Source of the DNA: Candidatus Woesearchaeota archaeon
Lineage (GTDB): Archaea; Nanobdellota; Nanobdellia; SCGC-AAA011-G17; ARS1403
Direction of reading: 5' to 3'
NCBI GenBank assembly: GCA_016188065.1
Contig: JACPIN010000020.1
Coordinates: 764 to 64,763 of the forward strand
Length of the DNA: 64,000 nucleotides
The notes beneath the pieces are model-generated. The model worked only from the letters and a program-made list of their open reading frames with translations. It had not been told where the DNA came from and searched no databases. The position numbers and the translations under genes were made by a program. Below are positions 2,231-50,031 of the stretch, piece by piece (position 1 is the stretch's first letter; the number at the start of each line of letters is the position of its first letter).

Positions 2231-4102
2231 ATGGTAGGAATTACTGGATATCTTGGAATCAAAGATAAAACCTTGTTGAATAAAATGATAGATTCCTTGA
2301 GATATACTAACAAAGAATTGTCAGATATTTATGGAAGCAGAGAGATATCCATTTCAAGAGTACATCATGGAATTATTGACTCTGAAAAACAACCTATATT
2401 CAACGAGGATAAATCTATTTTTATTGTGATGGAAGGAGAGGTATTTGATTATGAAAATGAAAAAAATGACCTCATTAAAAAAGGCCATAAGTTTAAGCTA
2501 AAAAATAATAGTGCTGAGTTTTGCTTACATCTCTATGAAGAATATGGTGATGATACCTTCGAAAAATTAAATGGAAGCTTTTTGATTACTCTATACGATT
2601 TAAAAAATAAAGAACTTATCTTTGTTACTGATAAACTTGGCTGGTATCCCTTTTTTTATTACATTAACGATAAGAAATTTATTTTTGGTACACAGATGTC
2701 AAGCATATTGCAAGATGGTGAATTTGAAAGGCATTTAAATATAGATTCAATTCATGAATTTTTCACTTTTCAAAGGGTCTTCGGCGATAACACTTTCTAT
2801 AAGAATATTAAGATTTCCTTGCCAGCTACAATTATGAAGATTAAAAGTTATAAAATAAAAACAAAATGCTATTGGAAGATGGATTTTACCTCAGAAGAAC
2901 ATGATGAAGATTACTGGGCTGATGAGTTAGCAAGTGCCTTAAAAAAGGCTATAAATATTAGATTGAATAAAAGAGACTATAAGTTTGGAATCCTTCTAGG
3001 CGGAGGGCTGGATGCTAGAGCTATACTTGCTGGGGCAGATAAAAATGTTACTTGTTTTACTTATGGCACTTATAAAAATAATGAATTTACTTTTGGGGAT
3101 ATGACTGCAAAAATAAAGAAGTCAAAACATGTTTTCTTTCAAATTGATAAGAATCATTTTGCTAATTTGGCTGATGTTTCTATCCGTATTGGTGATGGCA
3201 TGCATCCTTTTATCCATGCTCCATGGATAGGATATTTTGAGGAGATTAAAAAAGATTGCAATGTGTTACTGCATGGGTTTTCTTTTGACATTCTTTTTAG
3301 GGGATTGTTTGTCCCCATGGAGAGGAGATCATTTTTAGGAAGAAATGTTTCAATCAGAAGTATTGATTACACATGGGCTGAAAATAATTTCCTTGATAAG
3401 CTAATTAAAGAAGCGAATTATGGACTGCAAGGCTTAAATCCAGCTCAACTATTTAAAGATAAAAACAATGTCAATAATAATTTGAAGGAAAACTTTACAA
3501 AAGTCCTGGAATCTAGGGAAAATGGCATTAAAAATTTATATGACAGAGTGGATCATTTCTGGATCGACTCACTTTATAGATATCCTTCATTCTTGAATGT
3601 ATCTTGTATAAGGCCTTTTGTCGATGAGATGCTTGTAACTATAGACCCATTATTACTTGATGTCTATCTTAGAATGCCGCCAGAAGCAAGAATCAATGAC
3701 AGAATTTGGAAAAAAACTCTGATAAAATTAAACAAAGACGTTGGAGAAGTTCCTGATGCTAAAACCGGGTTTTCCCCATTGCTGCCAAAATCACTAGAAC
3801 ATGGAATTGTGCTTTCAAGAAAATTGGCTCACAAAATTATGTATAAGATTTTAAATAAGATTAATCCAAAACAAAGAAAAGAGTCTAACTTTGCCGAGTT
3901 AATAAGATATAATAAAAAATTTAGAGAGAAGATGTACAACATAATCAATGATCCAAAAGCAATTAACCCAAAGATATTTGATGTTGAAAATATTAATAAA
4001 ATGTTTAAGCTGCATATTAATGGAAAAGAGGATCATAATACTGCTTTCTTTATTGCATTACTAACATTCGGGAGATGGCATAAAATTTACGGACCTACTT
4101 GA
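2231..4102 (+). CDS. asparagine synthetase B-like protein lacking the N-terminal Cys nucleophile
   Basis: N-domain aligns with AsnB (MVGITGY vs MCGIAG; HLYEEYGDD; KLGWYPFFYY). PP-loop region is LGGGLDARAI versus SGGLDS. An in-frame stop lies immediately upstream of the Met-Val start. Confidence 0.65.
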   Translation: MVGITGYLGIKDKTLLNKMIDSLRYTNKELSDIYGSREISISRVHHGIIDSEKQPIFNEDKSIFIVMEGEVFDYENEKNDLIKKGHKFKLKNNSAEFCLHLYEEYGDDTFEKLNGSFLITLYDLKNKELIFVTDKLGWYPFFYYINDKKFIFGTQMSSILQDGEFERHLNIDSIHEFFTFQRVFGDNTFYKNIKISLPATIMKIKSYKIKTKCYWKMDFTSEEHDEDYWADELASALKKAINIRLNKRDYKFGILLGGGLDARAILAGADKNVTCFTYGTYKNNEFTFGDMTAKIKKSKHVFFQIDKNHFANLADVSIRIGDGMHPFIHAPWIGYFEEIKKDCNVLLHGFSFDILFRGLFVPMERRSFLGRNVSIRSIDYTWAENNFLDKLIKEANYGLQGLNPAQLFKDKNNVNNNLKENFTKVLESRENGIKNLYDRVDHFWIDSLYRYPSFLNVSCIRPFVDEMLVTIDPLLLDVYLRMPPEARINDRIWKKTLIKLNKDVGEVPDAKTGFSPLLPKSLEHGIVLSRKLAHKIMYKILNKINPKQRKESNFAELIRYNKKFREKMYNIINDPKAINPKIFDVENINKMFKLHINGKEDHNTAFFIALLTFGRWHKIYGPT

Positions 4103-4882
4103 AATAAGGCTTGAACAGAAAACTCCATGGCTTTATACCGGCTTTAACTTCTCTATACATAATTATTGCTGTCAATATAGGCAAAATTGCACCATAGATA
4201 ATCAGGATTATATCCAGTGAGCTGAAGATTGCTGCTATCAAGAAGAGATATCTTGAATTAGCACCTTGTATTACTGTAAAAATTAATCTGAATAAATTTC
4301 TTAAAAATGATTTTTTATATTGTGTATGTTTTTCATTGGGTATTGGAACGGATTTATCTATTGATATGTGCGGTGATTTTCCTTGTGCACATTCTACAAG
4401 TTTAGAAAATATTACCTCATGTTTTAGGTACTGGATTATTCCATTATAGAAACTGAAGAATATAGCAGAGATTCCAAAAATTAAAACCAGTATATCAAAG
4501 TGATTTTGCATTACTCCAATTGTGACTCCGGCAAATACCAGTGGCATAATGATTACTTCTGATAAAGAGTCCAAAAACAAACCATCTAGTGAAGTAGCTT
4601 TTTTATATCTTGCCAATTCTCCATCTACTTGATCAATAACGATCATCAACTCGAATGGGACTATTGCAAGGATTGAAAATAGATAATTATTCATTGCAAA
4701 GAAAAAAGCTACTAATACATTAAAAAATAATAAAGAGAGCGTTACTTGATTGGGGGTTATTTGTGTGTTTATAAGTAATCGCGTTATATATATTGAAGAA
4801 CTTTTCCCCTTAAAGTACCAAAATCGTGCATTTCTGAAGGTTTCTGACAGATCTCTCTTAGCTCTTTTATTGTTGGAGACAT
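4095..4882 (-). CDS. CDP-alcohol phosphatidyltransferase family protein, interrupted by a frameshift near 4803-4810
   Basis: DG-x2-AR-x8-G-x3-D-x3-E motif (DGELARYKKATSLDGLFLDSLSE). The upstream open frame encodes the family-typical ITPNQVTL N-terminus without an ATG. An ATG at 4882 in the adjacent frame (MSPTIKEL...LRGK) joins after a 1-nt shift in a GGGGAAAA run. Confidence 0.6.
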
Positions 4883-8120: not shown

Positions 8121-9568
8121 AAGACACAGGAAGAATTACGAAAGGATTAGATCCAAAGATTGTGGGGATATTATATGGAGATAATCTTGATGAGTTAATT
8201 GATGGTGAAATGGTGTATTCCACTCAAGTTGATAGGGCTCATTTAGTTATGCTAACTAAGGAAAAAATAGTGGATAAAAACAAAGTGAAATTGCTGCTAA
8301 ATGAAATAAATAATCTAAGAGAAAATGAATTTGGACCATTAAGAGGCAAGACTCCACATAGGGGAATATACCTTCTCTATGAAGATTATTTAATCGAGAA
8401 GCTTGGCGAGGATATAGGGGGGGTATTGCAAACCGCAAGGTCAAGAAATGATCTTAATGCAACGATATTGAAATTAAGGCTGAGAGGACATTATAATTCT
8501 ATCATGATGAATTTATTAGAATTACAAAAAATTTTGATTGAAAAATCAAACCAGTTTAAAGATGTAATCATGCCGGCATATACTCACTTTCAGGCAGCAG
8601 TTCCAATAACTTATGGACATTACCTTGCTGGAATCGCTAGTGCAATAGACCGAGATATAGAGAACATAATAGCCAGTAGCAAGGGATTGCAATATTGCCC
8701 CCTCGGAGCTGGCGCGGTTGGCGGGACTTCTTTTCCTATAGACTCTAAATTAACTGCAAAATTGCTTGGCTTCTTTTATGAAGTGGAAAATTCTGTGGAT
8801 GCTGTGGCTTCCAGGGATCTTGTATTGAGATTACTATCAGCGACGTCAATTGCAGGAATCACGATAAGCAGATTAGCAACAGATTATTTACTATGGACCA
8901 CTTCAGAGTTTAATTTTCTATCATTTCCAGATAAACTTGTTGGGTCTAGTTCTATGATGCCTAACAAAAGGAATATCTTTATCCTTGAAAACATCCAAGG
9001 TAAATCCGGTTTTGCTTTGGGACAGTTCATCTCTTCTTCAAATGCAATGCAATGCAAGCCTTACACTAACTCCATTTCTGTTGGTACTGAGGGCGTTAAA
9101 AGTATCTGGAAACCTTTAGAAGAAAGTATTGCAGCAATAATCTTGATGACAAATATGGTAGAGAATGCAACTCCTAATAAAGAAAATATGTTAAGAAAAT
9201 CACTTGATGGGTATACTTTTGCAACTGAAACTGCTAATGAGCTTGTAAGGCAACATGGAATGTCATTCAGATCTGCCCATTATCTTGTTGGAAAAATTGT
9301 TAAAGAATCAATTGAAAACAAAGAACCCTTTAAAGATGCTGCTAAAAGAATATTAAATGAATCAAACAAAAACCTTTCATTTGATAATTTTGAAATGGAA
9401 AGGATTGTAATGAATTCTAGGTTTGGTGGAGGTCCCGGTAGATCTTCATTAAAAATTCTTAATAAAAAACTAATAAGATATAAAAGACATTTTGAAAAAG
9501 ATTTAAAATATTGGGCTAAGTCTGATAAGGTCTTAGAGAGAGAAATAAAAAAAATCTGTGGGTCTTGA
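8117..9568 (+). CDS. fumarate-lyase superfamily enzyme, argininosuccinate/adenylosuccinate lyase-like
   Basis: Superfamily signature GSSSMMPNKRN (GSxxMxxKxN). ARSRNDLNAT resembles the ArgH GRSRNDQ motif. Confidence 0.7.
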   Translation: MKDTGRITKGLDPKIVGILYGDNLDELIDGEMVYSTQVDRAHLVMLTKEKIVDKNKVKLLLNEINNLRENEFGPLRGKTPHRGIYLLYEDYLIEKLGEDIGGVLQTARSRNDLNATILKLRLRGHYNSIMMNLLELQKILIEKSNQFKDVIMPAYTHFQAAVPITYGHYLAGIASAIDRDIENIIASSKGLQYCPLGAGAVGGTSFPIDSKLTAKLLGFFYEVENSVDAVASRDLVLRLLSATSIAGITISRLATDYLLWTTSEFNFLSFPDKLVGSSSMMPNKRNIFILENIQGKSGFALGQFISSSNAMQCKPYTNSISVGTEGVKSIWKPLEESIAAIILMTNMVENATPNKENMLRKSLDGYTFATETANELVRQHGMSFRSAHYLVGKIVKESIENKEPFKDAAKRILNESNKNLSFDNFEMERIVMNSRFGGGPGRSSLKILNKKLIRYKRHFEKDLKYWAKSDKVLEREIKKICGS

Positions 9569-11125
9569 TTATAGTTTTTTTAGAATACGATTCATCTTCG
9601 TAAAATTTATCCCCGACTTTTCTTGTATAAGTTTAATAACCATAATGTCCTCTCGTTCAAATGCCTTTGTTATTATAAGTAATAAGATGTAGATAGTTAC
9701 CAATGCCAAAAAACCAAATGGTGCGGCAATAATATTTGGAAGCAATAACAGATACTTTCTAAGATAATACACTGATACGGTTGCAATAACTATTGAAGAA
9801 AAAACCTTTATATACTTTGCATTGAAAGGGGTTATACCTAGATAATATTTAACCTCTATCATCAACAAAATAGAGCGGGTTATAAAAGCAGTGGCTGTAG
9901 CAAGTGCTGCACCATTTATTCCATATATTGGAATCAAATAGATATTTAATATTAGATTGATAATCATCATGATCATTGAATTCAGAAATATGGTCTTAGT
10001 CTTCTTGTGGATCATAAGGATATCTTGAGTACTGCTCATGGCATATCCTACAAAATAACCGAGCGATAAAATTATTAATGAAGCCGACGCTTCGACATAT
10101 GCCCTGCCAAACAATATTGAGAGCACTTGGCTAGAAAATAGACAGAAAAAACTCAATAAGATGATGTTTATAGAGAAGATCCATTTAGTTATTATGATAT
10201 AGATGGATTTAAAAACTTCATTTTTAGATTGAGAATATATCTCTGTTAATACTGGAATAAATAAAGTGAGCATTATCAGGGGAACCATAAACATAAGCCC
10301 CGAGGTTGGTAAAGCAGCATTGTATAATCCTGTTTCTTGTGGAGATGTAAAATAACCTAACATTAGTGTATCTGTCCATAGGATCACTGAAAATATCAAT
10401 GTGCTGAAAAGCAACGGCAGGGAGTAAACCAGCAGTTCTTTATTGAGGGATAATGAAACTATCTCTTCGTCCTTTTGTTTTAATACCTTTGAATTTAAGA
10501 AATAAAAAGCAGCTATAAAACTTAGAAAAATTGAAATTATATAAGCGACTGTTAATCCAAATAACCTATAACCTAAAAAGGTAAAGATAAACGAGAGACT
10601 AACTTTTGTTACATTTTCTATTATATGTTTGGAATAGACTTCATATTCAACTTTTTGAAGTGCCCTGACTATTTTAAAAAATATTTCCCTTAGTGAATTA
10701 AATGGAATTATCACAGCAAATAATTTTATAATTATATTTAATTCTTGATCGTGAAAAAGATTTATTGCTAGCCACTTTGAAAAAATAAATACTATTATTG
10801 AAAGGAAAATACTTATTATGGAAACTATCTTCACTGAAAATCCTAGCATACTTTTTATTCTTGCATAATCTTCTTTTCCCTTGTAAAAAGAGACGTACCT
10901 CAACAATCCATCTCCTAAACCTATTAATGAAACAGAGGTTAGTAGACCCAATATTGCTATTCCAATGGATAACAAACCATATTCATAGATTCCTGCTCTT
11001 GCAGCGATTATCCTATAGATATAACCAAATATTTTCGAGAAGATTATTCCAAATGCTATTATTTTTGTCCCTTTTAGGATAGTTTTAAGAGGATTGTTTA
11101 TCTCTGATTCTGACATTAGTTTCAA
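9569..11125 (-). CDS. Wzx-type oligosaccharide flippase (MOP superfamily polysaccharide biosynthesis protein)
   Basis: 518 aa with about 14 predicted TM helices and a hydrophobic composition typical of PST/Wzx proteins. Confidence 0.65.
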   Translation of the reverse strand: MKLMSESEINNPLKTILKGTKIIAFGIIFSKIFGYIYRIIAARAGIYEYGLLSIGIAILGLLTSVSLIGLGDGLLRYVSFYKGKEDYARIKSMLGFSVKIVSIISIFLSIIVFIFSKWLAINLFHDQELNIIIKLFAVIIPFNSLREIFFKIVRALQKVEYEVYSKHIIENVTKVSLSFIFTFLGYRLFGLTVAYIISIFLSFIAAFYFLNSKVLKQKDEEIVSLSLNKELLVYSLPLLFSTLIFSVILWTDTLMLGYFTSPQETGLYNAALPTSGLMFMVPLIMLTLFIPVLTEIYSQSKNEVFKSIYIIITKWIFSINIILLSFFCLFSSQVLSILFGRAYVEASASLIILSLGYFVGYAMSSTQDILMIHKKTKTIFLNSMIMMIINLILNIYLIPIYGINGAALATATAFITRSILLMIEVKYYLGITPFNAKYIKVFSSIVIATVSVYYLRKYLLLLPNIIAAPFGFLALVTIYILLLIITKAFEREDIMVIKLIQEKSGINFTKMNRILKKL

Positions 11126-11196
11126 ACTTGAAATTTAATTTAAAAGCCTTTTTATTTATAGATACCTTAATAAAGTTATTTTGAGTTTTTACTAAA

Positions 11197-12498
11197 ATGA
11201 AAAAAGTGTTTGTTGGGATGAGCGGAGATGTATTTCATCATGGACATATCAATATTATAGAAACTGCTAGAAAGCTAGGAGATGTTACTGTAGGATTAAT
11301 GACCGATGAGGGAATTGTTAGCTATAAACGTCCTCCATTATTAAATTATGATCAGAGAAAAAAAATTATTGAGAACATTAAAGGTGTTAGTAAAGTTATT
11401 CCGCAAGACGGCCTTAATGATTATATTAGAATTATACGACAGCTGAAACCAGATTACGTTGTTCATGGAACTGACTGGAGAGAAGGCATTCAGAAGAGTA
11501 CAAGAGAAAAAGTAATTGAAGTCTTGAAGGAGGTTGGTGGAGAATTAATTGAGCCAGAATATACAAAGGATATCTCTTCTACAGCATTAGTAAATGAATT
11601 GCTTGAGCTTGGAACAACCCCAGATGTTCGATTAAAAAAATTGAGAAGATTAATCAAGTTGAAACCTATTGTCAGACTCCTTGAAGTCCATAATGGATTA
11701 ACCGGAAGAATTGTTGAAAAAACTAGAGTGGATTTAGATGGAGAGATTCGGGAATTCGACGGTATGTGGATAAGCAGCTTGACCGACTCCATTTCTAAAG
11801 GCAAGCCAGACATAGAATACGTTGATTTTACTTCAAGAAACCAGACAATTGACCAGATATGTGATGTTACAACCAAACCTATAATCGTCGATGGAGACAC
11901 TGGAGGAATGGCTGAGCATTTTTCCTATGCTGTTAAAACACTTGAAAGACTCGGTGTATCTGCAGTTATTATCGAGGACAAAATAGGCCTAAAAAGAAAT
12001 TCATTATTTGGAGCGGATGCTAACCAAACACAGGATAGTATAGAAAATTTTTCTAATAAAATCTCTGCAGGAAAAAGATCCCAAGTTACAGAAGAATTTA
12101 TGATCATTGCAAGAATTGAAAGTCTTATTTTAAGAAAGGGAATTGATAATGCATTGGAAAGAGCTTATGCTTATATTCAGGCTGGTGCTGATGGAATTAT
12201 GATACATAGCAAGGAGAAAAGCCCTGATGAAATTGTAACTTTTTGCAAGGCTTACCGACATTTTGATAAAAAAGTTCCTTTAATTGTCGTGCCTACAACC
12301 TACAATCAGATTACAGAGCAAGAATTAATAGACATTGGTGTTAATATTGTAATTTATGCAAATCACTTATTGAGAAGTGCATATCCCCCTATGCTAAAAA
12401 CTGCTGAAACAATTTTAAAAAATGGAAGATCTTTTGAAGCTGAAAAATTATGTTTACCTATAAATGAAATATTAACACTAATACCCGGAGGAAAATAA
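11197..12498 (+). CDS. pepM: bifunctional cytidylyltransferase / phosphoenolpyruvate phosphomutase (Fom1-like CyTase-PepM fusion)
   Basis: N-terminal HxGH nucleotidyltransferase (VFHHGHINIIETARKLGD, TagD/CCT-like). C-terminal PEP-mutase fold with the PepM-diagnostic EDKIGLKRNS (EDK-x5-NS), and LLEVHNGLTGRIVEK. Confidence 0.85.
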   Translation: MKKVFVGMSGDVFHHGHINIIETARKLGDVTVGLMTDEGIVSYKRPPLLNYDQRKKIIENIKGVSKVIPQDGLNDYIRIIRQLKPDYVVHGTDWREGIQKSTREKVIEVLKEVGGELIEPEYTKDISSTALVNELLELGTTPDVRLKKLRRLIKLKPIVRLLEVHNGLTGRIVEKTRVDLDGEIREFDGMWISSLTDSISKGKPDIEYVDFTSRNQTIDQICDVTTKPIIVDGDTGGMAEHFSYAVKTLERLGVSAVIIEDKIGLKRNSLFGADANQTQDSIENFSNKISAGKRSQVTEEFMIIARIESLILRKGIDNALERAYAYIQAGADGIMIHSKEKSPDEIVTFCKAYRHFDKKVPLIVVPTTYNQITEQELIDIGVNIVIYANHLLRSAYPPMLKTAETILKNGRSFEAEKLCLPINEILTLIPGGK

Positions 12499-12499
12499 C

Positions 12500-13372
12500 G
12501 TGGCTAGATTTTTGAATGAAATAGTTGATGATGAAAAATTAGCTTGGACAAGAGAAACATTTTCTTTAAACTCTGATGGAATCTATAATTTATTTAAACC
12601 TGGAATTTCTGGGTTACCTGAAAATGTTAAAAAATTCCGTGAAAACGTCTTAGAAAATGGATATGGCTTTGGGATTATTAAAGGGATGAGTCATTTTAAC
12701 AGAGAGATACAGAGAGAGATATACCTCTCTACTGCTAGACTTTTAGGGAACCCCATTGTGCAGAATATTTCTGGAGAGACGGTGGTTGATGTATTTGATA
12801 AAGGCAAAACTATGGAGACTGGTGGGAGGTATCATGAAACTAGACAAGGTGGAGCATTGCATACAGATAGCCCGCAATATAAAGATATTCCAGATTATTT
12901 AGGATTGTTATGTTTGCATCCTGCAAAAGCAGGGGGGGAGAGCAAATTTATCAGCGCGTATAGTTTACATAATCGGCTTTTGAAGGAAAACTCTGAACTT
13001 CTTAAGAGGTTATATCAGCCATTTCATTTCGATAAAAGAGGACATGAAAAACTTGGAGAAAGCCCGACAACATTTGAGCCAGTATTTAGATATGATAGTA
13101 AGGGATTACATTTTAGATATCTAGGAAATTACATCCGATCAGGACATGAAAGAATTTCAGTTCCCCTTTCTGATATTGAAAGAAAGGCACTTGAAGCTGT
13201 TGATAGGTTATTAGAGGATGAAAACCTTATTGTTACTGCAGAGATGGGATCTGGAGATATGCAGTTTTTGAATAACCATCGAGTTGTCCATGGAAGAACC
13301 GACTTTGTAGATTATGAAGATCTTGATAAGAAAAGATTGATGCTAAGAACTTGGTTACGAAAATATGTCTAA
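12500..13372 (+). CDS. TauD/TfdA-family Fe(II)/2-oxoglutarate dioxygenase (paralog 1)
   Basis: HTDSP (HxD) plus distal NHRVVHGRT (second His and Arg). Paralogous to 14537..15544. GTG start per ORF track. Confidence 0.65.
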   Translation: MARFLNEIVDDEKLAWTRETFSLNSDGIYNLFKPGISGLPENVKKFRENVLENGYGFGIIKGMSHFNREIQREIYLSTARLLGNPIVQNISGETVVDVFDKGKTMETGGRYHETRQGGALHTDSPQYKDIPDYLGLLCLHPAKAGGESKFISAYSLHNRLLKENSELLKRLYQPFHFDKRGHEKLGESPTTFEPVFRYDSKGLHFRYLGNYIRSGHERISVPLSDIERKALEAVDRLLEDENLIVTAEMGSGDMQFLNNHRVVHGRTDFVDYEDLDKKRLMLRTWLRKYV

Positions 13373-14120
13373 AGAAATTGTTGGTTTTATTCTCGCAGCA
13401 GGATGCAGCAAAAGGCTTAAAGAATTAACAATAGATAAGCCAAAATCTTTTTTAGAGATCAATAAAAAAAGACTTATTGATTATCATTTGGATTATTTAG
13501 CTGAATTCGGGATTAAAGAAGCGTGCCTAGTAGTTGGCTTCTTAAAAGATTTATTTAAAGAGAATATAGGCCATGATCATAAAGGCGTTAAAATTAATTA
13601 CATTGAAAATGATTTGTACGAGACAACCGGACATAGTTATAGCGTCCTCTTAGGAAAAGAATTATTTCTAGAGAAAGACATCCTACTTATTCATGCAGAT
13701 GTCTTCTATGACCGTTCAATTCTTGAAATGTTGATTAAAGAAAGTTTGGATAATGTAGTGCTTGTTGACGATCATTATAAAGTTCTAACTGGAGATGAAT
13801 TTGTTGTTACTGGAATGGATAATCTTGTTTCTGGAATAGGTCCTAATAAAACAGCGAATATTCAAGGAGAGTTTCTTGGATTGAGCAAACTGAGCTCTAA
13901 TTTTATGACTGAATTTTGCGATTATATGGAAGGCTTTTTTAGTGTTAGAGGAAATAAATTCAATTATGAAATAGTGATGGATGAATTCTTAGGAACAAGT
14001 TCTTCTCCACTTTATTATAAAAAAATTGGCAGAAGCAGATGGATTAATCTTAATTACAAAGAGGATTATGAGGAAGCCAAAAGAATTGCTGTAGAAAATT
14101 ATTCTTTTTTTAAAAAATAA
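13365..14120 (+). CDS. LicC/GlmU-like nucleotidyltransferase (sugar- or alcohol-phosphate cytidylyltransferase family)
   Basis: N-terminal GFILAAGCSKRL (GxGxR loop) and Rossmann-like NTP-transferase layout. 251 aa. Confidence 0.7.
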   Translation: MSKEIVGFILAAGCSKRLKELTIDKPKSFLEINKKRLIDYHLDYLAEFGIKEACLVVGFLKDLFKENIGHDHKGVKINYIENDLYETTGHSYSVLLGKELFLEKDILLIHADVFYDRSILEMLIKESLDNVVLVDDHYKVLTGDEFVVTGMDNLVSGIGPNKTANIQGEFLGLSKLSSNFMTEFCDYMEGFFSVRGNKFNYEIVMDEFLGTSSSPLYYKKIGRSRWINLNYKEDYEEAKRIAVENYSFFKK

Positions 14121-14488
14121 TCACATTCCATGCAACTGGATTTAATACATTGCTCTTTCATATTAAAACCATTGTTCCTTCCCCATTCTTTAATTTGAAG
14201 TAGAATATTTACTAACTCTTGTCCTTTATCTGTAAACCGATAATAGATTTTTCCTGAATTAATTCTTTGAATTATGCTAAATTTAATAAGTTCTTTTATA
14301 GTTAAAGATAGCAAAGAAGAGTTTATAATTTTGTCTGTTCTTTTTTTAAGCTGATTAAAAGTAAGGTTGTTATTTTTAAATTCCAATAATATGGGGATAG
14401 TCCATCTTCTACCTAGGAAATATTCAAGCTCTAGCATTTGACAATGAATATTTTCTTTTAACATAGATACAAAAATTTGTACTTTCAA
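14099..14488 (-). CDS. HxlR-type winged-helix transcriptional regulator
   Basis: GRRWTIPILLEF matches the HxlR core (GxxWTLLIL). Small and Cys-rich at the C-terminus. Confidence 0.65.
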   Translation of the reverse strand: MKVQIFVSMLKENIHCQMLELEYFLGRRWTIPILLEFKNNNLTFNQLKKRTDKIINSSLLSLTIKELIKFSIIQRINSGKIYYRFTDKGQELVNILLQIKEWGRNNGFNMKEQCIKSSCMECDYFLKKE

Positions 14489-14536
14489 TTTAAATTACTT
14501 GTGGTTTTTGATATTAAAAATTAAGGAGGCTTAAAA

Positions 14537-15544
14537 ATGCAAAATATCCCTCAAAGTTTTCCAACTGAAAAAGTTGAGAATAAACGATCCTGGAATAGAA
14601 ATAGTGACTTCAGTCATATAGTGCATGTTTTTTCAAAAGAAACTCAAGATGAAATAAGAGACTATTTAGATATGAGCGTTACAAAAAAAGTTTTAGGCAG
14701 AGAAGAGATTGAATCTGTTGACTATAACCCTAATGAATTATCTAATCTTGTTTCGGAAATAGAATCTGTAAGACCCCAAGTAGATACTGGAACGGGATTC
14801 GTTGTTTTCCCAGATTGGGAAGGCTTGACAATTCATCAAAGCCGAGTTGCATCTTGGTTAGTGGATAACACCTTTGGTAAATGTAAAGAGCAGGATGATA
14901 GGGGGAGTCGTTTGATAGAGATATATAATCAATCAGATACTCTAAGTATGAAAACTGGTGCTAGATACCATGTAACTAGAGAAGGAAATTCTCCACATAC
15001 AGATGGTCCACAGATCATTGATGACCCGGATTATTTGTGTCTACGCTGTGTTAATGATGCTTGGGTAGGCGGAGAAAATATTTTGGTAACCGGAGAATCT
15101 ATATATAATAATCTTCTTGAAAACGCTTCCGATTTAATTGGAGTATTATCTGATAATTTTTACTTCCATTGTAGGGGTGTTAAAAATGCTGAAGGAAGAG
15201 AATATTTTCAAGCACCCATCTTGTCTATGGATAAAGAAGGAATAAGATTACGTTTTTTAGATCATTACATTAGAGAAGGGCATAAATTTGCTAGAACGCC
15301 TTTGACGTATAAACAGGAAAAGGCTATACAGTATATAAATAGTTTATTTGAACAGTCTGATTTACAATTTAGAGCCAGATTAGAGCCTGGACAACAAGTA
15401 GTATTTGCAAATAAAAGGATGTTGCATGCAAGAACGGAATTTGTGGACTTAAACCCTGCAAATGAACACTATGATCCTAGTCAACTAGACAACATAAAAA
15501 CTGCAAATAGATTGATGGATAGAACCTGGACCTATAAAAGATGA
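14537..15544 (+). CDS. TauD/TfdA-family Fe(II)/2-oxoglutarate dioxygenase (paralog 2)
   Basis: ARYHVTREGNSPHTDGPQIIDDPDYLCL aligns with GRYHETRQGGALHTDSPQYKDIPDYLGL of paralog 1. Distal HART motif. A GGAGG ribosome-binding site lies 7 nt upstream. Confidence 0.65.
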   Translation: MQNIPQSFPTEKVENKRSWNRNSDFSHIVHVFSKETQDEIRDYLDMSVTKKVLGREEIESVDYNPNELSNLVSEIESVRPQVDTGTGFVVFPDWEGLTIHQSRVASWLVDNTFGKCKEQDDRGSRLIEIYNQSDTLSMKTGARYHVTREGNSPHTDGPQIIDDPDYLCLRCVNDAWVGGENILVTGESIYNNLLENASDLIGVLSDNFYFHCRGVKNAEGREYFQAPILSMDKEGIRLRFLDHYIREGHKFARTPLTYKQEKAIQYINSLFEQSDLQFRARLEPGQQVVFANKRMLHARTEFVDLNPANEHYDPSQLDNIKTANRLMDRTWTYKR

Positions 15545-15587
15545 ATCTTCCATTAGGCTTTTAATCTTTTTTGTTCTTTATTTTTAT

Positions 15588-16715
15588 ATGATTTCATGCG
15601 AAAAACTATTCAATGTATTTAAGAAACAGGGACTAGAATTTTTTACAGGTGTTCCAGACTCTTTCTTAAAAGATTTTTGCTCTTATATTAATGATCATGC
15701 TAAATCTGAAAACCATATCATTACTGCAAATGAAGGTGGAGCAATTGCATTAGTTACTGGTTATCATCTTGCAACTGGAAACATTGGAGTTGCATATATG
15801 CAGAATTCTGGAGAGGGAAACGCGGTTAATCCTTTAGTCTCACTTGCTGATCCTGAAGTTTATAGCATCCCCATGTTACTATTAATTGGATGGAGGGGAG
15901 AACCAGGGATAAAAGATGAGCCGCAACATGTTAAACAGGGAAAGATTACCATTGATTTGTTGAATGTTCTTGGCATACAGTATGAAATACTTCCGGATTC
16001 TATCAATGATGCTGAGAAATCAGTAGAAAATATAGTTAATAAGATAAAGGAAAAAAATACACCATGTGCACTTGTTATTCGTAAAGATTTATTTGAGCCA
16101 TATGGGTCCAAAAATAAAATAAAATCCCTTTATATTTTATCGAGAGAAAAGGCGATTCAAATCATTGTAGATAATTTGAATCTTGGCGATGTCGTCGTTT
16201 CTACTACTGGTAAGATTTCTAGAGAATTGTTTGAATATAGAGAGAAAATAAAGCAAGGCCATAATCGAGATTTTTTAATTGTTGGATCTATGGGACATTG
16301 TTCGCAGATTGCCTTGGGAATTGCATTATCTAAACCAAATAGACAGATATACTGTTTAGATGGAGATGGAGCAGCCATAATGCACATGGGATCTTTAGCA
16401 ATTATAGGCTCTAAAAACATTAAAAATTTCAAACATATTATTTTAAACAATGGTGCACATGAATCTGTAGGTGGACAGCCAACCGCAGGATTCAATATTG
16501 ACTTCTGCTCTATTGCTAAAGCTTGCGGATATAAAACTGTGTTGAAAGCTGTAGATGAAAATGAGATTAAAAATAGAACTGTGTCTTTAAAATCCTGTAG
16601 CGGACCTGCACTTTTAGAGATTAGAATTAATGCTTTTTCTAGGAAAGAATTGAGCAGGCCAACGGATTCCCCTTTAGAAAATAAAAAGAAGTTTATGAAG
16701 TTTTTACAAGAATGA
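15588..16715 (+). CDS. ppd: phosphonopyruvate decarboxylase (TPP-dependent)
   Basis: N-terminal FFTGVPDSFLKDFC and LLLIGWRGEPGIKDEPQHVKQG are characteristic of Ppd/sulfopyruvate decarboxylase. TPP motif GDGAAIMH...NNGAHESVGGQ. Adjacent to pepM. Confidence 0.85.
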   Translation: MISCEKLFNVFKKQGLEFFTGVPDSFLKDFCSYINDHAKSENHIITANEGGAIALVTGYHLATGNIGVAYMQNSGEGNAVNPLVSLADPEVYSIPMLLLIGWRGEPGIKDEPQHVKQGKITIDLLNVLGIQYEILPDSINDAEKSVENIVNKIKEKNTPCALVIRKDLFEPYGSKNKIKSLYILSREKAIQIIVDNLNLGDVVVSTTGKISRELFEYREKIKQGHNRDFLIVGSMGHCSQIALGIALSKPNRQIYCLDGDGAAIMHMGSLAIIGSKNIKNFKHIILNNGAHESVGGQPTAGFNIDFCSIAKACGYKTVLKAVDENEIKNRTVSLKSCSGPALLEIRINAFSRKELSRPTDSPLENKKKFMKFLQE

Positions 16716-17809
16716 AACAGAAAGAATTCTTCGGATATGGAAGCATTAACAAAATTGCAGGAATTGCCTCTGAATTAGACACTAAAAGAATATTTCTAGT
16801 TACTGGCAGAGATTCTTATGAACATAGTGGTGTTAAAAATTGTTTAGATATGTTGCTCCATCATTATGAAATTAACAGGTTTAATCAATTTTCTTCAAAT
16901 CCTAGACTGGTTGATATAATGAGAGGTTTTGAGCTATTTAAGAAGGAAGATTATGAACTAATTATTGCAGTTGGAGGGGGAAGTGTAATAGATGTTGCCA
17001 AAGCAATTAAGCTGTTTAACTTCAATAAATGTTCTTCAAAAACACCATTAGTTGCAGTACCAACCACCTCTGGAACCGGAAGCGAGGCTACCTATTATAT
17101 TGTCTATTATATTGGCAAAGAAAAACAATCAGAAGGCTTGCCAGAGATAACCTTGCCTGATTACTCCATTTGCGATCCTACTTTTACAATGAATATCCCA
17201 AAAAAAATTGCTGCAGCGACTGGAATGGATGCTTTAGGGCAAGCAATAGAATCTTACTGGAATATTAATTCCACAAAAGAGTCTAAAGAATTTGCAAAGC
17301 AGTCTATTTCTCTTTTAATAGATAATTTGGAAAAATCGGTAGGAAATCCGGATCCAGAATTAAAAGAAAAAGTTATGAGAGCTGCTAATCTTTCTGGAAA
17401 AGCAATAAATATCACAAAGACTACCGCATGCCATTCTATTTCATATCCAATTACTTCTTACTTTCATATCCATCATGGACATGCAGTTGGACTAACATTG
17501 GGAGAAATGCTTGTATACAACTATTATTCTAAGCAGGAATGTGTTGATCAAAGAGGCGAGGATTATCTTAAATCAGCTTTAGAAGAGATTACTGCTTTAA
17601 TCGGCGGAAAAGATGTTATTGAAGCAAGAGATATTCTATATGATCTGATGAAGAATATTGGGCTTGAAACTAAACTGATTGATCTTGGGATAAATAAAGA
17701 GGGAATAGAAGTTATTATAAAACGGGGATTTAATCCTGAAAGGGTAAAGAATAACCCTAGACATCTTGATGAAGATAATCTAAGAGAAATTTTAGAAAGC
17801 ATTTATTAG
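16712..17809 (+). CDS. group III iron-containing alcohol dehydrogenase, probable phosphonoacetaldehyde reductase
   Basis: GGGSVIDVAKAI NAD(P)-binding motif and HIHHGHAVG metal-binding site. ATGA-coupled to ppd, as in characterised HEP-forming pathways. Confidence 0.75.
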   Translation: MKQKEFFGYGSINKIAGIASELDTKRIFLVTGRDSYEHSGVKNCLDMLLHHYEINRFNQFSSNPRLVDIMRGFELFKKEDYELIIAVGGGSVIDVAKAIKLFNFNKCSSKTPLVAVPTTSGTGSEATYYIVYYIGKEKQSEGLPEITLPDYSICDPTFTMNIPKKIAAATGMDALGQAIESYWNINSTKESKEFAKQSISLLIDNLEKSVGNPDPELKEKVMRAANLSGKAINITKTTACHSISYPITSYFHIHHGHAVGLTLGEMLVYNYYSKQECVDQRGEDYLKSALEEITALIGGKDVIEARDILYDLMKNIGLETKLIDLGINKEGIEVIIKRGFNPERVKNNPRHLDEDNLREILESIY

Positions 17810-17852: not shown

Positions 17853-18974
17853 ATGAGGGTTTCAATTATAGGTCCTGCTTATCCGTACAGAGGGGGAATA
17901 TCCCAGTTTAATAGTTTGTTGTCAAAGGAACTTTTATCTGAGGGTTATGAGGTAGATTTGATTTCTTTCAAGAGAATGTTTCCTAATTTTTTATATCCAG
18001 GAAAATTTCAAAAAGATTTTGATAGCAAGATAAGAAGTAATGCTGATAGTCTAATTGATAGTTTAAATCCATTAACCTGGTTTAAGGTTTTTTGGAGGAT
18101 AAAAAGGTATAATCCAGAACTACTTATAATAAATTGGTGGAGCCCTTTTTTTTCAATTGCCTTTTCATCTATAGCTTTTTTTGTCAGAAGATTTACAAAA
18201 ATAAGGATAGTTACTATATGTCATAATGTATTTCCGCATGAAAGAATTTTATTTGATGAGATTTTAACTAAGATTTATTTCAAAAAATCACATGTTTTTA
18301 TAACCCACTCCTCCGAGGAGAAAAAAAGGGTGGAATCCTTAATAATGAATCCCATTGTAAATGTGACTCCCCTCCCAACTTATAATGCTTTTAATATAAA
18401 AAATATAGGGAAAAATGAGGCTAAGAAAAAAATCGGACTAAAAGATAAAAGGATTATTTTATTTTTTGGATTGATAAGGCCTAGCAAAGGTCTGATTTAT
18501 TTAATTCGTGCAATGCCAGAAGTCTTAAGAAAGTTTGATGTAAAACTTCTTGTCGTTGGAGAATTTTTCGGAGATTCTGAAAATAAATACCTTGAGGAAA
18601 TAAAATCATTGGGCTTGGAGAATAATATCAAGATGATAAATAAGTATGTTCCTGATGAAGATGTTGGGATGTACTATTCTGCCTGTGATGTTGCAATTAT
18701 GCCTTATGTCTCTGGTACAAGCAGTGCTGTTCTGCAAACTACTTTTGGATTGATGAAGCCGGTAATCTGCACCAATGTCGGTTTTTCTGATGACATAGAA
18801 GATAATAAGACTGGTTTTATCGTAAAAAAAGAGAGTCCTGAAGCCCTAGCAGGGGCAATTATTAAATTCTATTTGGAAAATAAAGAAAAAAAGTTTGTTA
18901 AAAACATTAAGAAAAGCCAGGATAAATTCTCTTGGAAGAATTATATTGGAGTGTTAGAAAAATGTGTGTCTTAG
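17853..18974 (+). CDS. GT-B fold glycosyltransferase (GT4-like)
   Basis: N-terminal MRVSIIGPAYPYRGGISQF and C-terminal donor-binding domain typical of GT4. Confidence 0.65.
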   Translation: MRVSIIGPAYPYRGGISQFNSLLSKELLSEGYEVDLISFKRMFPNFLYPGKFQKDFDSKIRSNADSLIDSLNPLTWFKVFWRIKRYNPELLIINWWSPFFSIAFSSIAFFVRRFTKIRIVTICHNVFPHERILFDEILTKIYFKKSHVFITHSSEEKKRVESLIMNPIVNVTPLPTYNAFNIKNIGKNEAKKKIGLKDKRIILFFGLIRPSKGLIYLIRAMPEVLRKFDVKLLVVGEFFGDSENKYLEEIKSLGLENNIKMINKYVPDEDVGMYYSACDVAIMPYVSGTSSAVLQTTFGLMKPVICTNVGFSDDIEDNKTGFIVKKESPEALAGAIIKFYLENKEKKFVKNIKKSQDKFSWKNYIGVLEKCVS

Positions 18975-39354: not shown

Positions 39355-39452
39355 CGAAAGCTTTATATAGAGGGTGTGTTTCTATATCGATAATTAAACG
39401 AGGTTGATATCAATTGCATTTATCTAAAATAAATCAAAGGGGTGTGTATATA
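39355..39452 (+). promoter_or_regulatory. putative strong promoter and leader of the surface glycoprotein gene
   Basis: TTTATATA at 39364-39371 followed by GGGTGTGTTTCTA. GGGGTGTGTAT ribosome-binding site immediately before the ATG. The same motifs recur upstream of the other surface-protein gene. Confidence 0.4.
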
Positions 39453-41840
39453 ATGGATAAAAAAGTGGGTGTATCTGTTTTATTTGGTTTTCTTCTTCTT
39501 GTTGGTTTGGTCGTTACAAATGCTATAGTAGATTCAAGTGATTCTCCATCTGATATGTTGAGGTCTGCAAATATTACTTTATATGGAGATGCAATAAGCA
39601 TTGATAATGCAAGTATCGGTGGTGGAAGTGAAATTGTTAATTTAACTGTTCGTGCAGGTGTTTCTGATAGTTCTGGTTTAAATAATATTACAAATATTAC
39701 TGTTACATGGGATGCTAATTTTACTTTCTTGGGATGGATTTCTGTTACTGACGTATTTGAGAGTGCATGTACAAATCAAGCACTTGGACTTGATTGTAGT
39801 CTTGGAGACAGTGATGATGGCGGTGCCTCTAATGCTACAATTTTCAATAATGTTACATTAATTACTGATGGAACTTCAACAGATTCACTTTCAGCTAATT
39901 GGAGTTGTAGAAATCTTTCAGCGACCAGTGTAAATTGTTATAATGATACTGACTTCTCAGCTTTGGTGGGTAATGGGAACAATACATTATTAATTAGATT
40001 TAATGTAACTGCAGCTTCTAATATTGAAGACAGAAGTATATTCATTGTAAATGTGTCAAACTCTGAAGCAAGTATCGCTGGCACTAATGAATCACAATTA
40101 ACTGTGTTTGTTGATGGAAAGGCTCCAACTTTATTAGAATTAAATATATCTGATGGGAATACTACTTGGGAAAATGGTACATTTAATGGAACTGTTGGAG
40201 AAGGATATTCAACTTTCTTAAGCAATCAGAGTCCTTTAACTGTTACTGCTACAGTTCTTGAGCAAAACCCTGATGATGCTACAGTATGGTTATTCTTCAA
40301 TGGATCTAACATAAACAGCAATGTGGCATGGGGTGAACTTGACAGAGGATTTTTATTATATCCTGCTAACAGAACAGAAGTAACACCTACAGTTACTAGA
40401 GGTACTTTATCAGGTGTGGCTACTTCATATTATACACATGCTATTAAGTATGAGTGGACTATTCCTGCTGGATCTGTTGCTAATTTTGGAGATAGTGCTA
40501 CTTTAAATCAGACAATAGCATTCATGGGGCTTGCAAATGACACACTTAATCAGGAGAATACTTTTAACGATACAACAACTATAAATGCTGCAGCGGTACC
40601 ATTTATGATATTATTGAACGATACATTGCCACGAGTATTTAATTTAACTTTGAAGGATCATAAGAGCAATGAATTGAAAGGCGGAAATGCAGATGGAAGC
40701 GGTGATTATTTGGCTGAAGGCAATATAACAATTACAATTGACGTAAAAGGAGCACCTAAGCCTACAATGGATTTGATTAATGGATCTACAATATATTTGT
40801 TTTATAATACAACTGGATCTTTAACAAGTTTGCAGAATGGTGAGATTGCAAACTTTGATGAAAAGATTAATTTGACTGATGTGAACATTACAGTATCATC
40901 CAGTGCTAGTGTAGTTGATCCTGATACTGTTGAGACTTATGAAACTTCAATATATTTGAATGCAAATGCAAGTAACGATGTTGAAATTTATGTTGTAGTT
41001 GGTAATAAATCAGAAGACATGAATCAAGCTGATTTAGGTTTAGCAGGAAATTATACATCTGAAGTGTTTATGAAGTTCAGAGTTGATGGTACAAATCCTG
41101 GAGCAGAGTTAAGTACTCCAAATAATAGGGGATTGGGATTATCTGGAAGCAGTACTTTCACTCAGATTGCAGAAGAATCAAAGACCACTGGAACAGATAC
41201 ACAGAAATTCAGCGGAACAGATATTAGTACTGCTGGAACCTATAATGTAAGATGCAGAGTTACTGATGCGGTTGGCAATGTTAAAGATACAGATACAACA
41301 AACCTTAATCAATTTACTGTAAGCATTTCATCAACTGGAGGTGGTGGTGCGGGTACTGGTGGCGGAGCAGGAGCAGCTGTAAGTTTTGATGTTGACTTTA
41401 CAAGTTCACCTCAAGCTACATTTAAAGCTAGCCAAGGAAGAGTCAAGAGCTTCAGTTTTGATGGGATAACAAAACACACAATAACATTCAGTGAAGTAGC
41501 TTCAGATAGCGTTACATTAATAATAGCATCTGATCCAATAACTGCTAAACTAAATGTAGGTCAAAGCAAATCTATTGATGTAAATGCTGATGGGACAGAT
41601 GATATGAAAGTCCAACTAAATGGGATAGACAATGGTGTCGCTGATGTTACTGTAACTAAGATGGAGGAAGGCGCAGCAAAGATAAAAGCTCAAGAGGAAC
41701 AGGCAAGAGAAGAATCAACTGGAGAAGTGGGTGAAGGGGTAATACCTGTTGCTGGAAGAAGCCTGGCTTGGTTATGGTGGACATTGATAGTAATTGTAGC
41801 TATCGTTGCAATCGGCTATTATGTAAATAAAAGGAAGTAA
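39453..41840 (+). CDS. secreted surface glycoprotein, S-layer-like, with C-terminal TM anchor
   Basis: Signal peptide MDKKVGVSVLFGFLLLVGLVVTNA, more than 30 N-x-S/T sequons, Thr/Ser/Asn-rich, and a C-terminal LAWLWWTLIVIVAIVAIGYYVNKRK anchor. AGGGGTGTG ribosome-binding site before ATG 39453 with TATA-like TTTATATA upstream. Confidence 0.65.
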   Translation: MDKKVGVSVLFGFLLLVGLVVTNAIVDSSDSPSDMLRSANITLYGDAISIDNASIGGGSEIVNLTVRAGVSDSSGLNNITNITVTWDANFTFLGWISVTDVFESACTNQALGLDCSLGDSDDGGASNATIFNNVTLITDGTSTDSLSANWSCRNLSATSVNCYNDTDFSALVGNGNNTLLIRFNVTAASNIEDRSIFIVNVSNSEASIAGTNESQLTVFVDGKAPTLLELNISDGNTTWENGTFNGTVGEGYSTFLSNQSPLTVTATVLEQNPDDATVWLFFNGSNINSNVAWGELDRGFLLYPANRTEVTPTVTRGTLSGVATSYYTHAIKYEWTIPAGSVANFGDSATLNQTIAFMGLANDTLNQENTFNDTTTINAAAVPFMILLNDTLPRVFNLTLKDHKSNELKGGNADGSGDYLAEGNITITIDVKGAPKPTMDLINGSTIYLFYNTTGSLTSLQNGEIANFDEKINLTDVNITVSSSASVVDPDTVETYETSIYLNANASNDVEIYVVVGNKSEDMNQADLGLAGNYTSEVFMKFRVDGTNPGAELSTPNNRGLGLSGSSTFTQIAEESKTTGTDTQKFSGTDISTAGTYNVRCRVTDAVGNVKDTDTTNLNQFTVSISSTGGGGAGTGGGAGAAVSFDVDFTSSPQATFKASQGRVKSFSFDGITKHTITFSEVASDSVTLIIASDPITAKLNVGQSKSIDVNADGTDDMKVQLNGIDNGVADVTVTKMEEGAAKIKAQEEQAREESTGEVGEGVIPVAGRSLAWLWWTLIVIVAIVAIGYYVNKRK

Positions 41841-49978: not shown

Positions 49979-50031
49979 CTATAAATAATAAAATCAAGAA
50001 ATCAATTTTTTAAACATATCTAAAATCTAAT

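Follow-up and report, generated by a model that had tools for sequence, protein, structure and literature searches.

Nucleotidyl activation is an established step in the formation of surface phosphonates (Rice et al., 2019; PMC6697681). In Pnt pathways, e.g., that of Treponema denticola PntC, a phosphoenolpyruvate (PEP) mutase (Ppm) is combined with a LicC-family cytidylyltransferase in a glycosyltransferase and flippase setting, and CMP activation is followed by transfer to the cell surface. Fom1 of Streptomyces wedmorensis, which serves fosfomycin formation, carries an N-terminal cytidylyltransferase (CyTase) domain of PF01467 with HxGH and ISST motifs followed by a PEP mutase (PepM) domain, and its system also contains a phosphonopyruvate decarboxylase (Ppd) and an iron-dependent alcohol dehydrogenase (Fe-ADH) able to supply 2-hydroxyethylphosphonate (HEP). 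The methylphosphonate cluster of the marine archaeon Nitrosopumilus maritimus (PepM-Ppd-Pdh-MPnS, with nucleotidyltransferases and sulfatases) likewise proceeds via HEP, and phosphonates of this type are presumed to be attached to exopolysaccharide or glycoprotein (PMC9381506). Among ppm neighbourhoods, the HEP branch accounts for 8.5% (PMC8942020). Here, we describe a phosphonate cassette at positions 11197-17809 of a single 64,000-nt stretch of DNA (in the following, the window) from a marine Candidatus Woesearchaeota archaeon, a member of the DPANN archaea (kingdom Nanobdellati).

This cassette shares with Fom1 the order of CyTase and PepM domains in one polypeptide and the accompanying Ppd and Fe-ADH, with the Pnt pathways a putative LicC-family enzyme, the glycan setting and the proposed logic of CMP activation before surface transfer, and with N. 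maritimus the archaeal, marine, HEP-type route. However, its genes lie in a glycan island rather than in an antibiotic cluster, and a credible Fom3 as well as a cupin-fold HppE/Fom4-type ORF, as known from the fosfomycin pathway (Fom1-4), are missing from the window. In contrast to the Pnt pathways, which lead to 2-aminoethylphosphonate (AEP), the cassette has Fe-ADH in place of an AEP transaminase, so that the branch point would be HEP rather than AEP; moreover, it contains two nucleotidyltransferases of different folds and two iron- and 2-oxoglutarate-dependent (Fe/2OG) dioxygenases, TauD1 and TauD2. Compared with the N. maritimus cluster, the window contains neither an MPnS/HEPD-type cupin nor a sulfatase-family gene, and we know of no enzyme of the 2OG-dependent TauD family that cleaves the C1-C2 bond of HEP.

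An earlier sequence-only reading of this DNA had proposed a compact cluster with a Fom1-type fusion, and all of its gene calls turned out to be correct in scans with Pfam and NCBIfam hidden Markov models, in sequence matches to PDB entries and by their motifs. The seven open reading frames (ORFs) are genuine, keep their originally listed coordinates (window positions throughout) and show strong family matches. In our assessment, the probability is about 0.6 that this two-operon cassette builds a surface phosphonate, whereby HEP would be made, cytidylylated, tailored by Fe/2OG enzymes and moved to a surface glycoconjugate. That we are dealing with a HEP-type phosphonate cluster for surface decoration is highly probable, and for hydroxylated HEP as the actual head group the odds come close to even without quite reaching it.

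The first gene encodes the fusion, with the CyTase domain at residues ~1-135 (PF01467 1.4e-15, residues 11-132) and the PepM domain at residues ~146-433 (PF13714 5.5e-56). The CyTase domain features the motifs HHGH (residues 14-17, nt 11236-11247) and ISST (residues 126-129) and is 55% identical over 132 residues to the solved CyTase domain of Fom1 (5x3d, E 3e-44), consistent with the Fom1 architecture that had been recognized from the letters. On the PEP mutase model TIGR02320 the fusion reaches 403.8 bits (cutoff 319.55). The PepM domain matches the structures 5unc (E 1e-42) and 1m1b (E 3e-41), and in the alignment to the latter, the Mytilus enzyme, all nine residues that we take to be its Mg- and substrate-binding set (D58, D85, D87, E114, K120, N122, S123, R159 and H190) have their counterparts, leaving no gap in the catalytic residues. 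It further contains EDKIGLKRNS at residues 260-269 (nt 11974-12003), i.e., the EDK-x5-NS motif that the PepM assignment had relied on and that separates PepM from the rest of the isocitrate-lyase superfamily (PMC6697681, PMC8931226). Judged by these domains, the fusion would form the C-P bond and probably also make a CMP-phosphonate. As fusions of PF01467 with Ppm constitute 23.6% of RefSeq Ppm (PMC6697681), the architecture as such is ordinary. Homologues of ~70% identity number in the thousands in marine metagenomes, including several from metagenome-assembled genomes (MAGs) labelled Woesearchaeota or Nanoarchaeota, and some bear the JGI name 'PEP phosphomutase / 2-hydroxyethylphosphonate cytidylyltransferase'.

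The enzyme families required for the proposed route from PEP to HEP, namely PepM, Ppd and Fe-ADH, are all present. Ppd is a fused alpha/beta protein with the thiamine pyrophosphate (TPP) motif GDG-x24-NN at residues 259-288, and in the PDB it matches the beta and alpha subunits of Ppd (9iz3) best. It scores clearly as Ppd (TIGR03297, 496.6 bits; cutoff 312.5) and stays below the cutoffs of both sulfopyruvate decarboxylase models (alpha, ComD, 83.6 against 147.95; beta, ComE, 120.7 against 221.5), so the decarboxylase is not of the ComDE type. The Fe-ADH obtained generic Fe-ADH matches alone, in NCBIfam as well as in the PDB. Because its gene overlaps ppd by 4 nt and the Ppd-ADH pair is kept in six related loci (L001, L005, L007, L013, L028 and L033; L001-L033 are labels for the public loci and contigs compared with the cassette), we predict it to be the phosphonoacetaldehyde reductase giving HEP. 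The presence of Ppd and Fe-ADH in turn favours HEP as the likely CyTase substrate.

The genes are arranged in two apparent operons, pepM-tauD1-pntC and tauD2-ppd-adh-GT4, which are separated by an antisense hxlR gene (Table 1). Within the former, the pepM stop lies 1 nt from the GTG start of tauD1, and tauD1 and the nucleotidyltransferase gene overlap by 8 nt; in the latter, gaps of 43 nt between tauD2 and ppd and between adh and the GT4 gene frame the overlapping ppd-adh pair. The hxlR gene runs divergently from tauD2 and overlaps the nucleotidyltransferase gene at the 3' end of the latter. Consequently, pepM and ppd fall into different transcription units.

Table 1. Genes of the phosphonate cassette, its direct neighbours and further window features discussed in the text (window positions).
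Feature	Position	Strand	Family match, size and remarks
CyTase-PepM fusion	11197..12498	+	PF01467 + PF13714; 433 aa
TauD1	12500..13372	+	PF02668 2.3e-35; 290 aa; GTG start
PntC/LicC-like nucleotidyltransferase	13365..14120	+	PF00483 + PF12804 (NTP_transferase); 251 aa
HxlR-family winged-helix regulator	14099..14488	-	PF01638 5e-12
TauD2	14537..15544	+	PF02668 8.9e-20; 335 aa
Ppd, fused alpha/beta, TPP-dependent	15588..16715	+	TIGR03297
Group-III Fe-ADH	16712..17809	+	PF00465 + PF25137 (ADH_Fe_C)
GT4 glycosyltransferase	17853..18974	+	PF00534 + PF13692
Wzx-type polysaccharide flippase	9569..11125	-	PF01943 7.6e-26; divergent from pepM
CDP-alcohol phosphotransferase-family membrane protein	4095..4694	-	PF01066 8e-06; 199 aa
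Secreted protein with C-terminal transmembrane anchor	39414..41840	+	no Pfam match; 808 aa; candidate acceptor
S_layer_C-like protein	43809-46085	-	758 aa; next to the secreted protein

Both dioxygenases belong to PF02668 (123.2 bits for TauD1 and 72.1 for TauD2 at a gathering score of 27) and possess an intact facial triad, HTD 121-123 with H264 in TauD1 and HTD 154-156 with H297 in TauD2, which is invariant across 22 homologues of the former and across the homologues of the latter. They are paralogues, as had been assumed, with 32% identity (E 1e-41), and their profiles align over the full length (hhalign probability 100), which marks them as full-length sister clades at the sequence level. 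The best PDB sequence match of both is FrbJ (5eqn, 5e-28 for TauD1; 4e-10 for TauD2), followed by TtnM (7n7v), gamma-butyrobetaine hydroxylase (BBOX), TmpA and DfmD, and an AF2 model of TauD1 (pLDDT 86.9) retrieved TmpA, TtnM, FrbJ and BBOX as top Foldseek folds with TM ~0.7. FrbJ, which hydroxylates FR-900098 to FR-33289, and TmpA, the C1-hydroxylase of 2-trimethylaminoethylphosphonate (TMAEP), are the closest solved relatives by sequence and by fold (TM ~0.72); both share the HxD...H triad and act on alkylphosphonates, yet their identity to TauD1 and TauD2 is just 15-22%. The N-terminal domain of BBOX and TmpA is missing from the two proteins, and an invariant R-Y-H-x-T stretch ~10 residues upstream of HTD is common to both clades and absent from the aligned FrbJ segment. 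TauD1 is thus best described as a predicted phosphonate hydroxylase of a clade near FrbJ and TmpA, an alkylphosphonate substrate for both proteins being suggested by conserved neighbourhoods and by the nearest solved relatives.

The sequence-only reading had named DhpA and PhnY as precedents, which remains apt with regard to the chemistry but not to the structure, where FrbJ, TmpA, TtnM and BBOX are nearest. DhpA, FzmG and PhnY*, which we take to be members of a PhyH-type family rather than of PF02668, did not occur among the TauD1 or TauD2 matches, nor did their relatives; they share the chemistry proposed for TauD1 while apparently stemming from a different lineage. These three are 2OG-dependent alpha-hydroxylases acting on HEP, methyl-phosphonoacetate and AEP. 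DhpA and FzmG convert HEP to 1,2-dihydroxyethylphosphonate (PMC4303578), and FzmG has been described as a PhnY* homologue (PMC8942020).

TauD1 homologues of 41-57% identity are found by the hundreds in metagenomes. The GTDB species representatives that encode one comprise Nanoarchaeia, Nitrosopelagicus and Nitrosopumilus single-cell genomes of Marine Group I Thaumarchaeota, one Chloroflexota MAG and one Acidiferrobacteraceae MAG. Of the homologues with sufficient flanking sequence, most have PepM, Ppd and Fe-ADH genes at a distance of no more than 10 kb (L005-L009, L013, L014, L017, L018, L020, L022, L028 and L031), a co-location that covers Nanoarchaeia, Marine Group I Thaumarchaeota and Chloroflexota. 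A class I/V (AEP-type) aminotransferase adjoining the phosphonate genes was not found in any of the TauD1-homologue loci examined, where the only aminotransferases were more distant DegT-type sugar enzymes in L007 and L008/L009. TauD2, by comparison, is rare: 18 further homologues of 56-79% identity appeared among 5.8e9 proteins, and 1.84e9 representatives contained a single 50%-cluster representative at 56%, the next relative being only 37% identical. Its bacterial relative in Pseudomonas, P0266, was considered as a clue to the substrate and discarded, as the gene stands in a TauD-EamA-LysR context unrelated to phosphonates.

The second nucleotidyltransferase had been called LicC/PntC-type, in line with its best PDB matches, the T. 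denticola PntC-AEPT fusion 6pd1 (3e-16) and then LicC 1jyk (5e-13); N-terminal domains of sugar-1-phosphate nucleotidyltransferases, however, score similarly on the protein in NCBIfam. Such a PntC-like gene is usually adjacent to TauD1 homologues (L005, L013, L015, L016, L019, L028 and L031) and in L012 adjoins a more distant TauD (32% identical), and it is the conserved partner of TauD1. The regulator is an HxlR protein as predicted. Since its homologues comprise 116-121 aa, its start is probably the ATG at 14464 (121 aa), which would leave a 72-bp divergent control region between hxlR and tauD2. With the exception of L031, TauD2 has an HxlR gene at its side in all lineages examined (L007, L010/L011, L012, L013 and L028), and HxlR probably controls the tauD2 operon. 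If so, flux through the pathway would be gated, because Ppd pulls the PepM equilibrium. The only inverted repeat that turned up is part of the hxlR coding sequence and was rejected as a candidate operator.

With respect to the surroundings, a Wzx flippase and glycosyltransferases do enclose the cassette, as had been noted, and genes for plausible glycoprotein acceptors are close by. Directly flanked by the flippase and the GT4 genes, the cassette is part of a glycan and S-layer island of at least 45 kb, and G+C amounts to 33-34% across the whole window, cassette included. The island encodes radical SAM enzymes, GT1, GT2 and GT4 glycosyltransferases, an asparagine-synthase-like amidotransferase, the Wzx flippase, a C-methyltransferase, nucleotide-sugar dehydratases and epimerases, PMT_2-type GT-C enzymes, a UbiA prenyltransferase and the S_layer_C protein. 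By Pfam, no aminotransferase exists in the cassette, as had been stated, or elsewhere in the window. A cupin, HEPD or MPnS-like ORF was likewise not found in the window, which is one window of the genome: MPnS and HEPD measure ~440-460 aa, and the window ORFs of ~400-500 aa are all otherwise assigned or polytopic membrane proteins. Candidates rejected in this search, which took in unannotated ORFs of ~400-800 aa, were 30042-31484 and 38071-39309, both polytopic membrane proteins (the former without a PDB match), and 39414-41840, a secreted sequon-rich protein.

This protein contains 35 N-x-S/T sequons, i.e., 4.3 per 100 aa compared with <=1.6 in every other ORF tested. Together with the neighbouring S_layer_C-like protein, it is likely a surface glycoprotein, and both could be carriers of phosphonylated glycans. 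As a separate observation, a membrane protein of the LPG_synthase_TM family (UPF0104; 26595-27503, minus strand) adjoins GT2 and PMT_2 genes in the island, and L007 has a gene of this family (14591-15493) directly beside its phosphonate genes; the protein may be a partner that acts as flippase or transferase.

Directly readable in the window and its relatives are the enzyme families, their intact active sites, the layout of the operons and the conserved neighbourhoods, and from them we infer the following course, in which every substrate and product after phosphonoacetaldehyde, the oxidation site, the HxlR function as well as transferase and acceptor are proposals. The PepM domain would convert PEP to phosphonopyruvate, and Ppd would decarboxylate the latter to phosphonoacetaldehyde and thereby draw the unfavourable PepM equilibrium forward. 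Fe-ADH would then reduce the aldehyde to HEP, from which the Fom1-like CyTase domain would form CMP-HEP. TauD1 and its PntC-like partner could oxidize the phosphonate in its free or CMP-bound form, most plausibly by C1 hydroxylation to 1,2-dihydroxyethylphosphonate, because hydroxylation at C2 would merely regenerate the aldehyde. TauD2 would contribute a second oxidation from an operon that is probably HxlR-gated. Finally, a lipid-linked glycan or a lipid would receive the CMP-activated head group, and after flipping by Wzx the head group would be presented at the surface, probably on the sequon-rich protein or the S-layer.

Several findings weigh against this reading. Although similarity to Fom1 supports the earlier proposal that the fused CyTase gives CMP-HEP, its specificity for HEP is insecure, as 71%-identical fusions are accompanied by two aminotransferases and lack Ppd or ADH (L002-L004), and the domain is therefore not necessarily HEP-specific. 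Fe-ADH reaches only 159.2 bits on the phosphonate-specific model TIGR03405 (Phn_Fe-ADH; cutoff 423.7), with generic ADH models performing equally well or better. The functions given for the TauD1 and TauD2 clades are predicted ones; TtnM, the third of the close structural relatives, has a polyketide as its substrate, and more distant TauD relatives occur in non-phosphonate contexts, e.g., in Pseudomonas (L027). The TauD1-nucleotidyltransferase pair of L016 and the TauD2-HxlR pair of L010/L011/L030, which is located between EF-1alpha and S10 genes, both have no PepM within 10 kb. Moreover, Fe/2OG enzymes depend on O2 and 2-oxoglutarate, for which a reduced DPANN cell may have to rely entirely on its surroundings or host. 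Regarding the last step, the window contains no clear phosphonate transferase and no sulfatase-family or LicD gene, and the candidate from the CDP-alcohol phosphotransferase family is short and encoded 6.5 kb away from the cassette.

The dioxygenases leave room for the option that HEP is displayed unmodified while TauD1 and TauD2 act on a sugar, an amino-acid side chain of glycan or protein, an osmolyte or a BBOX-like quaternary amine. BBOX, trimethyllysine dioxygenase, AsnO and lysine hydroxylases (KDO) are indeed among their relatives, the polyketide enzyme TtnM and the PepM-free contexts of L010 and L016 fit as well, and HEP esters are known from marine high-molecular-weight organic matter (PMC9381506). 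We nevertheless deem this unlikely: members of both clades reside in phosphonate clusters with several architectures and from several lineages that are unrelated to each other, translational coupling places tauD1 between pepM and the PntC-like gene, the operon holding ppd and adh starts with tauD2, and the top sequence match of both is a phosphonate hydroxylase, FrbJ. A role of the two proteins in salvage or catabolism, with a PhnY*-like hydroxylation priming C-P cleavage, is extremely improbable despite the catabolic function of the close structural relative TmpA, since the tauD genes are embedded in a biosynthetic operon and neither the window nor any of the related loci compared here contain an HD-domain partner of the PhnZ/TmpB type, a phosphonatase or a C-P lyase gene.

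An alternative destination would be a phosphonolipid, formed if the CDP-alcohol phosphotransferase-family protein moved the CMP-phosphonate to an archaeol- or diacylglycerol-type lipid instead of a glycan. L005 (two copies), L007 and L012 have genes of this family next to their phosphonate genes, as has also been noted for Borg elements (bioRxiv 10.1101/2024.11.05.622173), and alpha-hydroxylation of phosphonoacetate by TauD/TfdA enzymes has been proposed for the phosphonolipids of Burkholderia (PMC12723261). The window copy, however, lies beyond an unrelated four-gene operon and is N-terminally short, its motif starting at residue 21 compared with ~70-90 in the cluster-adjacent homologues; the motif D-x2-DG-x2-AR...G-x3-D is kept except that the last Asp is replaced by Glu, and similarity to the copies of L005, L007 and L012 is weak (E 1e-5 to 1e-8), too weak to regard it as a dedicated transferase. 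It is at best a weak candidate for moving the activated phosphonate to an acceptor and may be truncated or functionally diverged. As the cassette itself is tied to a GT4 gene and a flippase within a glycosylation island, a lipid end product is improbable in our view, to the same degree as the unmodified HEP head group. Considerably less probable still, and in fact very unlikely, is a secreted small molecule of a fosfomycin-like or antimetabolic kind with transient cytidylylation. Fom1-like architecture and sequence of the fusion agree with it, and a B12-binding radical SAM (B12-rSAM) protein, the class to which Fom3 belongs, is encoded at 24232-25653; such genes also stand beside the fusions of L002-L004 and in L005. 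Yet the window gene is 6.4 kb off, with HpnJ and BchE as best matches far below their cutoffs, no ORF with the cupin fold of the HppE epoxidase was found in the window, and glycan and flippase genes consistently neighbour the cassette in all relatives. The B12-rSAM protein was also considered for a Fom3-like role; it matched sub-cutoff HpnJ, BchE and PhpK-family models in NCBIfam as well as AprD4 and TokK in the PDB and was not counted in the cassette.

Transfer of a tailored HEP to a surface glycoconjugate thus remains our favoured reading, and related loci offer a view on its distribution. The same cassette in the same order occurs in L013, L028 and L033 with protein identities of ~60-86% (L033 is a fragment of 1.75 kb). 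In L013 and L028, the GT4 gene (73% identical, syntenic) and SPASM radical SAM genes follow downstream as well. Shuffled versions with different PepM fusion types are represented by L007 (PepM-PntC fusion, Ppd, ADH, TauD1, CDP-alcohol transferase, TauD2, HxlR and nucleotidyltransferase), by L012, with a similar set and a more distant TauD1-like gene, and by L031 (TauD2, TauD1, nucleotidyltransferase and CyTase-PepM). L001, likewise from Woesearchaeota, combines CyTase-PepM, Ppd, Fe-ADH, a nucleotidyltransferase, Wzx and sulfatases and has no TauD. A Polysacc_synt flippase gene adjoins the phosphonate genes in L001, L002-L004, L005 and L012 and is ~5 kb off in L007, while in L016 a gene for a TagF-like CDP-alcohol transferase precedes the nucleotidyltransferase-TauD1 pair in a glycan cluster with an AglB-like oligosaccharyltransferase.

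In Marine Group I Thaumarchaeota, loci with a TauD1 homologue (L008/L009, L017, L018 and L020) feature PepM, a split Ppd, Fe-ADH, two nucleotidyltransferases, a KedN5-like B12-rSAM C-methyltransferase of ~700 aa, a metallophosphoesterase, a NUDIX protein and two sulfatase-family proteins. Within the 21 kb examined no MPnS candidate gene was found. These loci may represent a pathway to methylated or hydroxylated HEP that is distinct from the N. maritimus methylphosphonate cluster.

In L002-L004 (~9457-14223; a Tara Oceans scaffold in the case of L002, JGI metagenome contigs in that of L003 and L004), the fusion gene is followed by genes for a class V aminotransferase, a PntC-like nucleotidyltransferase and a class I/II aminotransferase, with a standalone CTP_transf_like gene and a B12-rSAM gene upstream; the set looks like a phosphonoalanine-type branch built on the same fusion type. 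The TauD2-HxlR pair of L010/L011/L030 is placed at ~10001-11420 and belongs to one DPANN lineage; at this locus, the genes for ribosomal protein S12 (684 aa) and EF-2 (1224 aa) both carry intein domains.

Some further features of the window are listed here for completeness. Just upstream of the flippase gene, four translationally coupled genes (4934-9568, plus strand) encode a GHMP kinase, an SbnA-like pyridoxal phosphate (PLP) enzyme, an ATP-grasp ligase and an argininosuccinate-lyase-like lyase. The PLP enzyme scores 234 bits on TIGR03945, below the cutoff, and also resembles cysteate and cysteine synthases, and the fused model PRK02186 is matched by the ligase in one half and by the lyase in the other. 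This set looks like an unusual amino acid or amine pathway (Dap-like, with aspartate as nitrogen donor) and is not kept with the phosphonate cassette, L028 having different upstream genes. Apart from the B12-rSAM gene at 24232-25653 (minus strand), a paralogue is present at 56710-58104 (plus strand), and another is divided into two ORFs on the plus strand, 34983-35783 with the B12 domain and the start of the rSAM core and 35808-36455 with the remaining core, possibly due to a frameshift, a pseudogene or an assembly error; all matches of these paralogues are sub-cutoff and of the HpnJ, BchE and PhpK type. Two long tRNA genes on the minus strand (50031-50118 and 60021-60112; 88 and 92 nt) probably contain introns. 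ARAGORN assigned both to tRNA-Phe with the anticodons AAA and GAA, of which the AAA assignment looks unreliable. The minus strand also encodes a RelA/SpoT-domain protein similar to small alarmone synthetases (50863-51924) and a Fic/DOC-domain protein (60987-61901).

The enzyme set had been put forward as one not recognized from any described pathway. In the searchable literature, which mostly excludes subscription journals, we found no description of it, and searchable surveys of marine phosphonates mention neither DPANN producers nor TauD-type tailoring. On the other hand, the novelty is restricted by the occurrence of the same cassette in three further loci, by the commonness of the fusion and by TauD1 homologues being common in marine Thaumarchaeota. 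What appears undescribed in that literature is the pairing of the HEP branch with one or two dioxygenases of an uncharacterized PF02668 clade near FrbJ and TmpA, a pairing that occurs in DPANN archaea and in marine Thaumarchaeota. A more far-reaching proposal, which we regard as tentative and rather unlikely as a whole, is that TauD1 and its PntC-like partner constitute an undescribed but widespread HEP branch in which HEP or CMP-HEP is hydroxylated, e.g., to 1,2-dihydroxyethylphosphonate, and put on surface glycans; it would be common to marine DPANN archaea and to many Marine Group I Thaumarchaeota without a nearby MPnS, and the rare, HxlR-paired TauD2 of DPANN archaea would add a second, regulated oxidation yielding a head group unseen in nature.

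A large part of the dissolved organic phosphorus of the sea consists of phosphonates, which also feed aerobic methane production. To our knowledge, only few producers and structures, namely HEP, methylphosphonate and AEP, are known. The locus indicates that DPANN archaea carry complete HEP-type clusters inside surface-glycan islands, and that an uncharacterized Fe/2OG clade travels with the HEP-type clusters of DPANN archaea as well as of abundant ocean Thaumarchaeota. If the TauD proteins do not hydroxylate HEP, the cassette would be one more HEP-type cluster for surface decoration; if they do, they would define a novel phosphonate head group of natural origin as well as a new biomarker gene of phosphonate production in the sea. 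A TauD1-PntC-like branch, if true, could furthermore explain part of the unassigned phosphonate pool in high-molecular-weight organic matter of the ocean. In this context, the cassette makes concrete the question of which phosphonates ocean archaea make besides methylphosphonate and HEP.

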